From: a virus | Reading direction: 5' to 3' (one strand) | IMG/VR virus record: IMGVR_UViG_3300030107_007542 | Coordinates: 129,779-193,778 of that record | DNA length: 64,000 nt | Shown: positions 8,587 through 24,493 of the stretch, piece after piece | How the letters are laid out: every line of letters begins with the position of its first letter | How positions within the stretch are numbered: position 1 is the stretch's first letter | The notes under the pieces: generated by a model | Databases searched by the model: none | Told to the model about the DNA's origin: nothing | The model's input: only the letters and a program-made list of their open reading frames with translations | Made by a program: the position numbers and the translations under genes

Positions 8587-8898
8587 TCATTCGCAACAGT
8601 TTATATCGTCATGAGTGTCAGGTTTGTTGGTCACCTTAAGCCACAAGCCCCACAGAATCGGAATCGCTAGCCAATGAAAACATAGAACTAAAGATGCTGG
8701 AATTCCAGCGAAAAACGCTGGATGTACATAGTTGCCTAAGATCCCAAATATAATTGGGAAAACAACATCCTCAACAATCTCCCACCCAACAAAGATGATG
8801 ACAAATGCTAGTCCATTTTTCTTAAGAAAGGCCTTCAGCTTTTCAATAGAAAAGTTGCTTAGTTTATGAGAGATTCTGGATTTTAGCCAACTAATCAT
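8587..8898 (-). CDS. Hypothetical membrane protein
   Basis: Two to three hydrophobic segments. Confidence 0.6.
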   Translation of the reverse strand: MISWLKSRISHKLSNFSIEKLKAFLKKNGLAFVIIFVGWEIVEDVVFPIIFGILGNYVHPAFFAGIPASLVLCFHWLAIPILWGLWLKVTNKPDTHDDINCCE

Positions 8899-8906
8899 AA
8901 GTTTTT

Positions 8907-8988
8907 TGGTGGAGGTGCGCGGAATCGAACCGCGGTCCTGAGACTACCATTGCAGGTTTTAATCCCAGTCGAAACCAGAGCCACCCCC
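8907..8988 (-). ncRNA. Miniature tmRNA-like RNA (tRNA-like domain only, no tag ORF)
   Basis: GGGGGTG GCTCTGGTTTCGA CTGGGAT TAAAACCTGCAATGGTA GTCTCAG GAC CGCGG TTCGATT CCGCG CACCTCC A CCA; G3:U70, no D-stem, tmRNA 5' and 3' consensus. Confidence 0.85.
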
Positions 8989-9022
8989 TCATGTTTTTTC
9001 TTGACATTCATGTTTATATAAG

Positions 9023-9385
9023 TTATTCTAAATCATTCTTATAGGAGTTCTTAATGTCATATTTACGTTTCAAAGCTTTAAAGGTCTGCTCACTAATTCC
9101 TAAGATTCTAGTAGCCCCCTTATTGGTATCAGTTATACTAATCACTGCATTATATAGCGCTTCCTTCGTAATATCAACCACATTCGACCAAAGATTAAAT
9201 CCATATAGTTTCCCCCCAGTTAGTCGACTGGAGCATTCTAATTTAAGGCCTATTAGTTCTTCCAAGGTTAATGTGGAGAGCATGATTTCAAATGCCTCGT
9301 TAGATTTGTTTTCGTCTCTCAACTTTTTAGAGAGAGAAAGATCTTTACAAAAACCCTGCGAACTTCGTCGCGGAGGTTTGTTCAT
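9023..9385 (-). CDS. Hypothetical protein with a C-terminal Fis-like HTH
   Basis: EALYNAV...NKGATRILGISEQTF resembles a Fis-type HTH. Confidence 0.5.
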   Translation of the reverse strand: MNKPPRRSSQGFCKDLSLSKKLRDENKSNEAFEIMLSTLTLEELIGLKLECSSRLTGGKLYGFNLWSNVVDITKEALYNAVISITDTNKGATRILGISEQTFKALKRKYDIKNSYKNDLE

Positions 9386-10215: not shown

Positions 10216-12072
10216 TTAGCCCACCGATATACCTAATAAATAGTCCATTACTTCGTTAACCAACCCTTCATCTGTCTTCTTGCGCTTTTGTTTGCGTTGT
10301 GGTCGACGCCGCAAAGGTTTTCCTAGGCCTCCGACCCCAATGGCCGCAGATCCGGCGCCCATAGCGGAAACTTCATCGAGTTCCTCTAGAGGCTCTTCTC
10401 CCAGTAAGGTTAAGATATCATGAATTTCTTGCTGATTTAAGGAGCCAGGCAACCCGGCGACAAAATCATCTGTGTCGTCACTCCACAGCGCTTGTCGCAT
10501 CTGAGTTGCTGAGATCCCTCCGGCCTGCGGTGGAACAGGAATTTGATTAACCCCAATTCCTCGGGCAGACCCGCGCTGGTCGGCTGCAGCATAGCGGCCG
10601 TCAGCAAGATCTTTTTCACCCAGGATTAAGTTAAGAATATCGCCTTCTTGGGCTTCATTATCCAGATAGTCATAAACAGAACGAACTGGGGAAATATCAC
10701 CAATTCGAATTTCAACATCTCCGGGCAAATAAGGCTTATATATTTCCCATATGGCCTTCGCTTGATCAGGACCTATTCCCTCATGAGGTCTGGGTGAAAT
10801 ATAAATGATAAGCTTGTTAACATTCGGCTTATTTAAGATTTCTTTAGCTACATCAAAGTGGCCACCATGAGGAGGCTTAAACTTTCCGGGGTACAGAGCT
10901 ATGCTGTGCCCCTTCTGTTCACTTAAAGATTGCTTGGAACGATCGCCGTGGGTAGAAGCAAGTCCTTGAACAATAAAATCACCAGTTAACTTAACTAAGA
11001 AATCTTCCATTCCTCTTAGGACCACACCCTCGTGGCTTCCTACGCTTCCAGCTTGACTTGTAAGAGCACGTTTCACCGCCTGACCCAAAAGGCGCGTTCC
11101 ATGATACAGGATCGCTCCATTTATTGCGTCTTTTACATCTTCTTGTGAGTCTAAATACTGACTCAGGGGCTGTCCCCCTTCTGTTGCGCTATTTAAAACA
11201 GCCATATAAACATCTTTGCTAAGCGCTCCGACGCTTTTTCCGTCGGCTCTTGTGACTTTGCGTTCTTGTGGATGTTCCACCATGCCGAGCCACTCCCGCA
11301 GTGTATTAGTAGCAATACCTCCAGGAGTAATCTGTACAGAAATGGGTGTTTCGAGTACAGCGTCCAAATCTAAATTGACCTCAGGGTCAAACTCGACAGG
11401 AACATCTCCGAAAACTTCAAAGCCGTACTTTGCCGCAAGTGGACGCACTTTTTCAATAAGACTCAATAAGGCATCCTTATCATAAGGTACTTCGATTCCA
11501 CCTGCTTTCGTGGGTTTGTCCGTATTGGGATCAATAGGCCTTTCAAGGCCCGGGCGATCCATAGATGTGCCTTTGCGAATAGCATGAGGTTGAGCTTTTT
11601 TAGCGTAAAATTGGTTAATTCCGTGAATAGCCAAAATGTTCTGATCATACTCTTGAACATTGGACTTTCCTTCAATATACTCAGTATTGAAATACTTGGT
11701 AGGATTATCCCACATTCCTAATTTTTTAAGATCTGGTTCAATTTCTGGGATTGTGGCATTAAAGATTTTTAGAAGCTTGGCAACTGCGCCAGCCATTCCA
11801 TGTTCGGGCCCCCACTTCTCTAGAGCCGCTTCGGCATCGAGGCCTATAACTGAATCGATGTGGTTGGTTCCCCGATCCATGCGAAACTCTTTTTCACCAT
11901 CGTCATTTGTGATGAGTTTAAAACTGGTATTAATACCGTCCCATTTAACGCTGCCATCAATCTCTTGATTTTGAAGACGCAATACAGCATCATTGATATA
12001 ATCAATTAAATCCTGCCCGGTTTTAACCCTCTCTACATCAAAAGGGTGCGCCATATGGCCTGGGGTACCCAT
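10216..12072 (-). CDS. Two-domain protein: ligase-like nucleotidyltransferase (DUF6267-like) plus HxxH cytidylyltransferase-like domain
   Basis: GHMAHPFD, SVKWDG (KxDG), HEGVVLR, VKLTG; then LYPGKFKPPHGGHF and ISATQMR. Confidence 0.65.
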   Translation of the reverse strand: MGTPGHMAHPFDVERVKTGQDLIDYINDAVLRLQNQEIDGSVKWDGINTSFKLITNDDGEKEFRMDRGTNHIDSVIGLDAEAALEKWGPEHGMAGAVAKLLKIFNATIPEIEPDLKKLGMWDNPTKYFNTEYIEGKSNVQEYDQNILAIHGINQFYAKKAQPHAIRKGTSMDRPGLERPIDPNTDKPTKAGGIEVPYDKDALLSLIEKVRPLAAKYGFEVFGDVPVEFDPEVNLDLDAVLETPISVQITPGGIATNTLREWLGMVEHPQERKVTRADGKSVGALSKDVYMAVLNSATEGGQPLSQYLDSQEDVKDAINGAILYHGTRLLGQAVKRALTSQAGSVGSHEGVVLRGMEDFLVKLTGDFIVQGLASTHGDRSKQSLSEQKGHSIALYPGKFKPPHGGHFDVAKEILNKPNVNKLIIYISPRPHEGIGPDQAKAIWEIYKPYLPGDVEIRIGDISPVRSVYDYLDNEAQEGDILNLILGEKDLADGRYAAADQRGSARGIGVNQIPVPPQAGGISATQMRQALWSDDTDDFVAGLPGSLNQQEIHDILTLLGEEPLEELDEVSAMGAGSAAIGVGGLGKPLRRRPQRKQKRKKTDEGLVNEVMDYLLGISVG

Positions 12073-22558: not shown

Positions 22559-24493
22559 ATGGGAGTAACAAACAAGTTTCTGGAAACGATCCAGGCACAC
22601 AAGGAGGGCGCCAAAAAAGAAAAGTTTGATGGCCTTCTCCAAGATTACTTAGAACTTATTGAAAACGGCGACGTCAAGCCGGTATTGGCTCACAAGCGCC
22701 TGTACGATGGCATCCTCTCGTATGGCATGGAGACGCTAGACGAGTCTGACAGTCGATGCAATAAGATCTTCGACGGCGAGCCAGTGCGTATTTATGATTA
22801 TTTTGCATCTCAATTCTTTGGCATGGAGCGCTCTTTAGAGAAAGTAATGCGATTCCTCCATTCTGCTGCCATGAAGGGAGAGGAAAGTCGACAGGTCTTG
22901 CTACTTCTGGGCCCTGTAGGCGCCGGAAAGTCAGCTCTCGTAGAACACATCAAGAGCGCCCTGGAGAAGCTTGACCCGGTTTATACTCTCAAGGGTTGTC
23001 CAATTCAAGAAGAGCCGCTCCACTTGATCCCTCGCTCTCTAAGAGCAGAGTTTGAGGAGTTGTACAACGTCAAGATTGAAGGAGACCTTTGCCCGGTCTG
23101 TCGACACCGACTTTTAAAAGAATACGAGGGGGACTACACACGATTTCCCATTACTGAGGTCTCATTCTCAATTCGCGGCCGTAAGGGTGTCGGCGTCGTG
23201 CCTCCCATGGATCCGAACACTCAAGACACAAGCCTCCTCATTGGCTCCGAAGATATTTCAAAACTAGATCTCTATCCGGAGGACGACCCCCGCGTACTTA
23301 GCCTTAATGGTGCTTTTAATGTAGGTAATCGAGGTATCGTCGAGTTTGTCGAGGTCTTTAAAAACGAAATTGAATTCCTTCATACCATGATCACAGCCAC
23401 GCAGGAAAAGAGTGTTCCATCGCCAGGCAAACAGGCTATGATTTATTTTGATGGCGTCATTCTAGCTCACTGTAATGAAGCAGAGTGGAACAAGTTTAAA
23501 TCTGAACATACCAACGAAGCTATCCTGGATCGAATTGTGAGGGTGAATGTTCCTTACTGTTTAGAGTACGAGCAGGAAGTAAAGATTTATGAAAAGCTCC
23601 TTGGCCGCTCAGATTATCGGTGTCATATCGCGCCGCACACACTAGAGGTAGCCGCAATGTTCGCTGTTCTGTCGCGACTACACTCCTCCAATAAAGCTGA
23701 CCCCTTGACCAAGATGAAAATCTACAACGGTGAGGAAATCATTGAAAAGGGTCTCATTCGTAAAATTGATATTAAAGATCTTCGTGAAGAAGTAGAAGAC
23801 GAAGGAATGACAGGAATCTCTACTCGCTTTATCATGAAAGCCATTGATGCCGCACTAGCCGACTCCACTAAAGATATGATCACTCCCATATCGATTCGGG
23901 ATGCTCTGATTAAACAGGTAAAAGAACAGATTACCAATTCGGACGCCAAGAAGACATATCTCTCATATCTTCAGAAAACACTTCATGAGGAATATCTAAC
24001 AATCCTTGAGAAGGAAATTACCAAGGCATTTGTTACAGCTTATGAAGAGCAAGCTGAGTCCCTCTTTAACAACTACCTTGATCACGCCGAGGCCTATGTT
24101 AATAACACCAAGGTAAAGGATAAAGTTACCAGCGAAGACATGGAACCCGATGAGAAGTTCCTCCAATCAATTGAGGAGCAGATCGGCATTAAGGGTTCTG
24201 CCAAGAACAACTTCCGAGCTGACATTACCTCCTACATGTTTTCAAAGTTGCGGCGAGGAGAAGCAATTGACTGGCGTTCTTATGGTCCTCTAAGGGAGGC
24301 GATTGAAACAAAGCTTGTTGCATCGGTGCGAGACATTTCTCGAATTATCACAAAGTCTAAGTCGCGCGATACCAAGCAGCAACGTAAGTTCAGCTCAATG
24401 GTTCAGACCTTAATTGACAATTATGGTTATAATGAAGATTCAGCCGAAGAAGTGATAAAGTTTGCTAGCAACAATCTTTGGAGAGACTCTTAA
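22559..24493 (+). CDS. prkA: PrkA/YeaG AAA+ serine protein kinase family
   Basis: LLLLGPVGAGKS, CPIQEEPL, NRGIVEFVEVFK, EAILDRI, EGMTGISTRF. Confidence 0.95.
   Translation: MGVTNKFLETIQAHKEGAKKEKFDGLLQDYLELIENGDVKPVLAHKRLYDGILSYGMETLDESDSRCNKIFDGEPVRIYDYFASQFFGMERSLEKVMRFLHSAAMKGEESRQVLLLLGPVGAGKSALVEHIKSALEKLDPVYTLKGCPIQEEPLHLIPRSLRAEFEELYNVKIEGDLCPVCRHRLLKEYEGDYTRFPITEVSFSIRGRKGVGVVPPMDPNTQDTSLLIGSEDISKLDLYPEDDPRVLSLNGAFNVGNRGIVEFVEVFKNEIEFLHTMITATQEKSVPSPGKQAMIYFDGVILAHCNEAEWNKFKSEHTNEAILDRIVRVNVPYCLEYEQEVKIYEKLLGRSDYRCHIAPHTLEVAAMFAVLSRLHSSNKADPLTKMKIYNGEEIIEKGLIRKIDIKDLREEVEDEGMTGISTRFIMKAIDAALADSTKDMITPISIRDALIKQVKEQITNSDAKKTYLSYLQKTLHEEYLTILEKEITKAFVTAYEEQAESLFNNYLDHAEAYVNNTKVKDKVTSEDMEPDEKFLQSIEEQIGIKGSAKNNFRADITSYMFSKLRRGEAIDWRSYGPLREAIETKLVASVRDISRIITKSKSRDTKQQRKFSSMVQTLIDNYGYNEDSAEEVIKFASNNLWRDS

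Follow-up and report, generated by a model that had tools for sequence, protein, structure and literature searches.

A mini-tmRNA without a tag reading frame in a T4-like phage genome, and its relatives in uncultured phages

INTRODUCTION

Nearly all bacteria use trans-translation, a process that is also a drug target. SmpB attaches to tmRNA at the elbow of its tRNA-like domain (TLD), and the G3:U70 pair together with the discriminator A73 forms the identity set for alanyl-tRNA synthetase (AlaRS).

Phages are known to carry tmRNA genes. Full-length or two-piece forms have been reported in the mycobacteriophage Bxz1 group, in Bacillus phage G and in the OM43 phage Melnitz (PMC4131195, PMC9004378). 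A shorter form was listed by Hudson, Lau and Williams in 2014 as 'Mycobacterium phage DS6A (TLD only)' (PMC4131195). Its entry in the tmRNA Website is tmID 11587, and both PMC4131195 and PMC11915505, the latter being the tmRNA database paper of 2025, cite Mao et al. 2009 for it. These two papers report inhibition of E. coli tmRNA for the DS6A RNA and for a TLD-only molecule similar to it; according to PMC4131195, the similar molecule inhibits strongly, perhaps through titration of SmpB, and inhibition did not need alanine charging. The TLD-only phage tmRNA is hence an already published type with DS6A as its sole published example, and we found no paper addressing their prevalence among phages.

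tmRNAs without a coding sequence (CDS) are also found in jakobid and oomycete mitochondria and, as forms of about 65 bp, in Mallomonadaceae plastids (PMC11915505). A truncated tmRNA has been crystallized with SmpB and EF-Tu in the A site of a stalled ribosome (as cited in a passage of PMC8363625), indicating that the TLD alone can enter that site.

Here we describe a phage RNA gene of this kind. The window analyzed, 64,000 nucleotides long, is the final 64 kb of a 193,778-bp IMG/VR record with a CheckV completeness of 100% and a G+C content of 46.6%. The original prediction, made from the letters of the window, knew of no description of such an RNA in phages. That impression of novelty does not hold, as the DS6A molecule has been in the literature since 2009 or 2014, to go by the citing passages.

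RESULTS

Identity and fold of the mini-tmRNA

The minus strand at 8907-8988 reads exactly as the original prediction had written it, and the proposal of a complete TLD without an mRNA-like domain was borne out by a search with the Rfam tmRNA model. RF00023 matched the segment from end to end (model positions 1-374) with 72.9 bits, against a gathering score of 47, and an E value of 2e-26, 10 nt standing in for 303 model positions. This match is far beyond chance. It is the sole RF00023 match above cut-off in the whole 193,778-bp genome, and Rfam clan competition assigned the RNA to tmRNA. It was also matched over its full length, with 66.7 bits, by R1, a covariance model of its relatives (see below). 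The gene occupies a 124-nt gap between two open reading frames (ORFs) of the same strand. ARAGORN called five tRNAs in the window, which is also the total for the whole genome, and the mini-tmRNA was not among them. Its features are as follows.

8907-8988, minus strand: mini-tmRNA gene (TLD only, tag-less), 82 nt including an encoded CCA, identified with Rfam RF00023 and covariance model R1
8982-8988, minus strand: 5' strand of the acceptor stem, GGGGGUG, nt 1-7, with the G3 of G3:U70, read directly
8969-8981, minus strand: D-loop analogue GCUCUGGUUUCGA, nt 8-20, no D-stem, aligned to the tmRNA consensus cuGGaUUCGA
8961-8968, minus strand: 5' strand of helix 2a, CUGGGAUU, nt 21-28, pairing with nt 44-51
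8958-8960, minus strand: AAA bulge, nt 29-31, counterpart of the conserved GAa that separates helix 2a from helix 2b in full-length tmRNA
8946-8957, minus strand: helix 2b stub ACC(U)-GCAA-(U)GGU, nt 32-43, capped by a GNRA tetraloop, in place of about 300 nt of pseudoknots and tag ORF
8938-8945, minus strand: 3' strand of helix 2a, AGUCUCAG, nt 44-51, from covariation and fold
8918-8937, minus strand: GAC connector, nt 52-54, and T-arm CGCGG-UUCGAUU-CCGCG, nt 55-71, from the RF00023 alignment
8907-8917, minus strand: 3' strand of the acceptor stem, CACCUCC, nt 72-78, with U70; discriminator A, nt 79; CCA, nt 80-82; read directly
9023-9385, minus strand: upstream gene of 120 aa, syntenic with the mini-tmRNA in its clade, with a possible Fis-type helix-turn-helix at the C terminus
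8587-8898, minus strand: downstream gene of 103 aa, hydrophobic product, starting 9 nt after the CCA

The TLD has all the expected parts: a 7-bp acceptor stem with G3:U70, the discriminator A, GG-UUUCGAC in place of a D-stem, helix 2a, the connector and the T-arm, each of them as predicted. The mRNA-like domain is missing: neither a resume codon nor a tag frame ending in a stop can be accommodated where 303 model positions are reduced to 10 nt, the strands of helix 2a are separated, beyond the bulge, by only 12 nt, and the RF00023 alignment leaves no sequence to form pseudoknots PK1-PK4. In its layout, the RNA is a complete tmRNA TLD lacking the mRNA-like domain, and it is presumably alanylatable. 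A phage-encoded TLD (IMG/VR record, T4-type gp23 capsid gene) within about 65-85 nt, with a short, capped helix 2, no tag frame and the alanine identity set of G3:U70 and A73, is the form known from DS6A.

The single-sequence fold comprised the acceptor stem, an 8-bp helix 2a (C21-U28 with A44-G51), the AAA bulge and a 3-bp hairpin, whose stem A32-C34/G41-U43 encloses UGCAAU, or GCAA closed by U-U. The U35-U40 apposition is U-G in the related contig L117. The fold energy of the RNA taken alone was unremarkable (z -1.8), and the structure is supported instead by covariation across relatives. Two foldings of the 17 inner nt had been proposed, a bulged 3-bp hairpin and a 7-nt loop presenting UGC as an anticodon. 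The first agrees with the fold and with a covarying stem, whereas the second is contradicted by the variable tetraloop of the relatives. The Rfam consensus of full-length tmRNA shows helix 2a, then the conserved GAa bulge, then helix 2b. As the bulge and the covarying 3-bp stem of the family match this order, the 17 inner nt are, on alignment grounds, the tmRNA helix 2a/A-bulge/helix 2b junction, retained with helix 2b capped after three pairs. This identification of the inner hairpin of such RNAs came through the window RNA.

Genome and neighboring genes

The genome carries a T4-type gp23 capsid gene. By capsid protein, the isolates that come closest to it are those of the Immutovirus group of Flavobacterium phages (47% aa identity), Microcystis phage Mel-JY01 (45%) and Rhodothermus phage RM378 (41%), these matches covering 55-59% of the query and none of the 2,536 matching records reaching 80% coverage. 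Because of this partial coverage, the phylum Bacteroidota is only a weak guess for the host. None of the three isolates (for the first group, Flavobacterium phage immuto) carries a mini-tmRNA, so the RNA is dispensable in the wider lineage.

SmpB (PF01668), RtcB and a tyrosine integrase are all absent from the whole 193.8-kb genome. The original prediction had suggested a search of the genome for smpB or for a separate tag-ORF RNA; besides the absence of smpB, Rfam at gathering score found no second tmRNA-family RNA in the window or in the other 130 kb. The proposal that the RNA is one half of a two-piece tmRNA was rejected, since the gene is unpermuted, with its parts in standard order, helix 2 is closed, and no alpha, beta, cyano or other tmRNA match reached the gathering score in the whole genome.

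Neither the 120-aa upstream protein nor the 103-aa downstream protein matched Pfam or PHROG. The upstream protein has counterparts with 60-77% aa identity in contigs L010, L085, L106 and L111, each lying 35-40 nt upstream of the RNA, and its C-terminal segment resembles a Fis-type helix-turn-helix, the nearest named Atlas clusters being HTH_8 (0.84-0.86), which we give as a lead. The downstream protein has an L085 counterpart (85% aa identity). A 618-aa protein (10216-12072, minus strand), encoded two genes upstream of the mini-tmRNA and with a relative in L106, showed weak cytidyltransferase-like PHROG matches at residues 385-553 (E about 3e-6). Elsewhere in the window, a gene at 22559-24493 (plus strand) codes for a full-length PrkA serine protein kinase (AAA_PrkA, 2e-141; PrkA C-terminal domain, 2e-80), a host-like stress kinase that is unusual for a phage; two same-strand ORFs of 414 and 435 aa precede it.

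Conservation in the close clade

A clade-specific motif retrieved the RNA from six other viral contigs (L010, L085, L106, L111, L117 and L253), of which all but L253 came from the first scan and were compared in detail. The same 82-nt form stands in the same place in six independent metagenomic contigs, which rules against an assembly deletion. RNA identity in the clade is 85-98%, compared with mostly 44-50% for the 60 nt upstream and 50-77% for the neighboring proteins. In four of the five contigs compared (L010, L085, L106 and L111), the genes preceding the RNA are again those of the 120-aa and 275-aa proteins, at 54-77% aa identity; L117 has a different neighboring gene in common with the window. 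Compensatory changes were seen within the clade, from G56:C70 to A:U in the T-stem and from U22:A50 to G:C in helix 2a.

Upstream of the RNA, a TGTCAA(S) motif (window 8989-9015, minus strand), about 10-26 nt from the 5' end, is kept in L010, L085, L106, L111 and L117, the spacer outside it being only about 45% identical across the clade. CTAAAT directly precedes the RNA in four relatives. The TGTCAA(S) motif could be a promoter or a processing element; read on the plus strand, it gives TTGACA, a -35 box.

Family-wide survey and covariation

Viral contigs were scanned with a loose motif that fixed only UUCGAC, GGAC and the T-loop and allowed 18-48 nt between them. It occurred at at least 119 loci, and 120 matches were listed. 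The full layout, with a perfect 7-bp acceptor stem at the right distance, was present in 115 of the 120 matches listed, i.e., in at least 115 RNAs. Among the same 120, position 3:70 is G-U in 118 and the discriminator is A in every one; CCA is encoded in only 36. The base after the discriminator is C in at least 90% of the aligned listed sequences despite this scarcity of encoded CCA, and its constancy suggests a constraint on 3' maturation.

The covariance model R1 was built from 20 gap-free sequences, and 99 of the listed matches, 79 of them distinct, were aligned to it. Paired cells made up 96.1% of this alignment; shuffling lowered the share to 66.4%, and sliding the partners to 41-51%. 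The covariation score over the 79 distinct listed sequences was 0.68, compared with 0.14 for shuffled sequences and 0.07-0.09 for slid partners; the alignment is fitted to the model, and a gap-free MAFFT subset shows the same picture. Changes on both sides were found at 15 of the 23 pairs, across all four helices. The check on covariation in homologues that had been suggested at the outset thus gave a strong signal throughout the structure.

The distribution of these changes is uneven. G1:C72, G2:C71, G3:U70 and G7:C66 are invariant among the 79 distinct listed relatives, and acceptor pairs 4-6 covary and vary freely. G1:C72, G2:C71, G3:U70 and A73 lie outside the search pattern, so their constancy was not imposed by the search; likewise outside the pattern, the GG before UUCGAC is invariant or nearly so in the listed matches. 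In the listed matches, seven of the eight helix 2a pairs have changed on both sides across the family, and T-stem pairs 1-3 covary. The bulge is purine-rich, with one column being A in 72 of the 79 distinct listed relatives, and the 3-bp helix 2b stem covaries, with CG/GC swaps in 15 and 28 of the 79 listed sequences. The inner loop of the listed relatives is mostly of 4 nt and variable (CACG 14, GCAA 8, CAUG 7, CUUG 4, GUAA 4, CAAG 3, also GAAA). Alanine identity, in contrast, was never lost among the 79 distinct listed sequences, which bears on the mechanism.

Distribution among phages and cells

The mini-tmRNA type is common, yet unannotated, in uncultured phages. The survey covered 32 other carrier records with a length of 30 kb or more, 14 of which have a completeness of 90% or above. 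In each, a single tmRNA match, of 72-85 nt, exceeds the Rfam cut-off; no full-length tmRNA (Rfam) and no SmpB (PF01668) was found in these 32 records. The expectation that RNA finders would miss the gene was right for ARAGORN, which called none of the 91 distinct minis, and wrong for the Rfam tmRNA model, which finds such RNAs above its gathering score. Routine phage annotation therefore under-reports minis where it relies on ARAGORN. An ordinary tRNA gene lies within 150 nt of eight of the 91.

No protein neighbor is conserved family-wide among the listed loci, and neighbors differ by phage lineage, those of the window RNA being small uncharacterized genes. In a large HK97-type subgroup, the mini-tmRNA is part of the late operon, where it is flanked by the genes for the prohead protease (Peptidase_S78) and the major capsid protein and has the portal gene upstream (L114:538-2448, L112:1035-2297, L036:564-1931 and about 20 related loci among the matches listed).

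BLAST searches of 50,697 isolate phage records with the 1-kb region and three minis gave nothing informative except DS6A. In cellular genomes, occurrences of the same motif were mostly 3' ends of ordinary tmRNAs or chance matches; about five of the 118 matches listed were mini-like, a figure that is indicative and not a rate.

Some single loci deserve mention. Viral contig L056 has two copies about 1.2 kb apart, L056:5-84 and L056:1317-1395, both on the plus strand, scoring 41.5 and 56.3 bits with R1. A 484-kb uncultured phage (LR756508.1, 414804-414915; L261) gave a 112-nt match to the mini-tmRNA model with 42.7 bits, and this variant may be an intermediate with a longer helix 2. Ruegeria phage RpAliso (OR257569.1; L122:2874-2956) has, beside a tRNA array, an unannotated RNA-like stretch that ends in a tmRNA-type T-arm and ACCUCCACCA; it scores only 29.7 bits with R1 and could be the acceptor piece of a two-piece tmRNA in this phage of an alphaproteobacterium. 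In Mycobacterium phage Validus (KF713486.1, 32979-33011; L123), a stretch of 33 nt matches the T-arm and the acceptor 3' end, and a tyrosine integrase gene follows about 90 nt downstream. Such Validus-type mycobacteriophage matches were rejected as mini-tmRNAs, as they resemble an attP core that was copied from the tRNA or tmRNA gene of a host.

DISCUSSION

Judged from its conservation, the mini-tmRNA is a real, functional phage gene. The idea that it is a non-functional remnant, i.e., a deleted ssrA pseudogene, an attP fragment or an assembly deletion, draws on phages that integrate at tRNA or tmRNA genes and carry the 3' end of their target, as in the 33-nt Validus-type match beside a tyrosine integrase, and it is hardly credible here: both halves of the acceptor stem, the 5' one included, are present and covary, the genome has no tyrosine integrase, six independent assemblies have the same 82-nt form, and in the clade the RNA is far better conserved than its flanks. 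The decay or assembly deletion that the original prediction had named as a risk is contradicted by the same observations.

Its role is most likely interference with, or hijack of, host ribosome rescue. On balance, we think it probable that it is a functional tag-less mini-tmRNA, charged by the host AlaRS and competing for host SmpB and EF-Tu. The RNA would be transcribed within a leftward array of small genes and excised like a tRNA, with RNase P acting at the 5' end and the CCA being encoded. The host AlaRS would charge it with alanine by way of G3:U70 and A73. It would then bind host SmpB, the use of which is presumed for a phage that has no SmpB of its own, together with EF-Tu, and would compete with the host tmRNA for SmpB and for stalled ribosomes. 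As the mini-tmRNA has no resume codon or tag frame, degradation tagging and normal trans-translation would be lowered or blocked during infection. A decoy for SmpB and trans-translation was the first role put forward in the original prediction, and it has a published precedent in DS6A and the similar TLD-only molecule, as presented in passages of PMC4131195 and PMC11915505.

A pure SmpB sponge would leave the invariant G3:U70 and A73 unexplained, because the published inhibition did not need charging, in the account given by the relevant passage of PMC4131195. That alanine identity is never lost points rather to a step at AlaRS, EF-Tu or the ribosome. At the ribosome, the RNA could be a dead-end competitor after peptidyl transfer, or it could serve a genuine tag-less rescue.

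The latter is the main rival explanation, which we regard as possible, if rather unlikely. The alanyl-mini-tmRNA, with host SmpB and EF-Tu, would take over the nascent chain at a stalled ribosome and add one or several alanines, and drop-off with Pth or an ArfB-type release would follow, leaving phage proteins unmarked. The minis would then be an alanylation-dependent rescue or Ala-only tailing device of many unrelated phages, freeing ribosomes from the non-stop mRNAs of the infection with products unmarked for proteolysis; we put this forward tentatively. The strict alanine identity among the listed matches speaks for such a role, since sponging does not require it (PMC4131195, in the part concerned), as do the CDS-less tmRNAs of mitochondria and some plastids, which persist alongside SmpB and have a presumed role in dealing with incomplete mRNAs (PMC11915505), and the competence of a TLD with SmpB and EF-Tu for A-site entry (cited in a passage of PMC8363625). 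Host SmpB would be used, as this genome and the 32 carriers encode none. However, no release mechanism is known after transfer to a tmRNA without a stop; nothing in the genome points to a partner release factor, RtcB and SmpB having been searched for and neither found; and the only experiments on such molecules, as described in passages of PMC4131195 and PMC11915505, report inhibition, not rescue.

It is distinctly improbable that the RNA serves as an anti-defense decoy, a tmRNA or tRNA mimic that would occupy or mislead host defense proteins which bind or cleave such RNAs, for instance nucleases acting on the anticodon or acceptor, systems containing SmpB-like domains, or RNase R control. Among the domains of CoCoNuT type IV systems are SmpB-like OB domains, for which tmRNA is the predicted ligand (PMC11090510), fragments of tRNA and tmRNA are used by a phage anti-CRISPR (PMC11662646), and the RNA is patchy over unrelated phages, as counter-defense genes often are. 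Nevertheless, we saw no link to a defense system in the window or the related loci and no family-wide protein neighbor among the listed loci, and the conserved alanine identity would be left unexplained.

Similarly improbable is mRNA punctuation, in which the tRNA-like fold would act mainly as a cut site for RNase P and RNase Z between upstream and downstream messages. The RNA does sit tightly between same-strand genes, with the next ORF 9 nt after the CCA, and the large HK97-type subgroup has it between prohead protease and major capsid genes; yet any tRNA-like fold would suffice for this, and the D-loop analogue, the 2a/A-bulge/2b junction and the invariant G3:U70 and A73 would have no explanation. 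As for a tRNA-Ala mimic whose inner hairpin presents a UGC anticodon and decodes GCA, as the original prediction had suggested, we reject it almost entirely: UGC is exposed only in the window clade, and there only if U35 and U40 are unpaired, it is not conserved among the listed relatives, whose loops are mostly of 4 nt and variable on a 3-bp stem, the segment is helix 2b by alignment, there is no 7-nt anticodon loop, 5-bp anticodon stem or D-arm, ARAGORN makes no tRNA call, and clan competition gives tmRNA.

If competition for the host rescue factors is the role, a natural and widespread 80-nt phage RNA engaging the core factors of trans-translation would offer a compact means of probing or inhibiting the pathway, and would make ribosome rescue a regular battleground of infection.

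Compared with the bacterial one-piece tmRNA (RF00023), the window RNA aligns in the TLD and from helix 2a through the GAa-type bulge into the start of helix 2b, and it has the alanine identity elements. A tetraloop takes the place of about 300 nt: pseudoknots 1-4 and helix 5 are gone, as are the resume codon and the tag frame. Unlike a bacterial tmRNA, it is encoded by a phage without smpB.

Laboratory TLD constructs, reportedly those of Gutmann in 2003 and Bessho in 2007, along with the crystallized truncated tmRNA cited in PMC8363625, were used for structures of SmpB and of SmpB with EF-Tu and the ribosome. They resemble the window RNA in that helix 2 is cut short and capped by a loop, and they bind SmpB and EF-Tu and enter a stalled ribosome's A site. 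Those constructs were engineered, whereas the window RNA is natural, is under purifying selection and retains the A-bulge and the helix 2b stub.

The CDS-less organellar tmRNAs, like the window RNA, have little beyond the TLD, no tag frame, and SmpB encoded elsewhere (PMC11915505). The organellar RNA is the resident rescue RNA of its organelle, whereas the window RNA is an extra one entering a cell that has its own full tmRNA, and competition is therefore to be expected of it. The tmRNAs of the Bxz1 group, phage G and Melnitz are phage-borne and ssrA-derived, as is the window RNA, but they keep a tag frame, in one piece or in two permuted pieces, whereas the window RNA is unpermuted and its genome holds no coding piece.

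The closest match remains the DS6A RNA, which we located at JN698994 28478-28560, unannotated between gp33 and gp34, and which fits R1 over its full length with 58.4 bits. Both RNAs are phage-encoded and about 82 nt long, with G3:U70, A73, a D-loop analogue, helix 2a and a T-arm and without a tag ORF, and both have an A-rich bulge and a 3-bp hairpin with a tetraloop, the DS6A interior reading GAAAA-CCG-CACG-CGG-UA. CCA is encoded in the window RNA and not in the DS6A RNA, which has GGUCGAC and GCAC where the window RNA has UUUCGAC and GGAC. The DS6A phage encodes an RtcB-like ligase; a link between RtcB and the mini-tmRNA was rejected, as RtcB is missing from the genome of the window phage. 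Inhibition of the DS6A type comes from the cited experiments on DS6A or a similar molecule. DS6A is a 60-kb temperate siphovirus of M. tuberculosis, and the window phage is a 194-kb T4-like phage without an integrase and presumably of a different host. The value of the window RNA is thus mainly confirmatory, and it extends the class to a large lytic T4-like phage.
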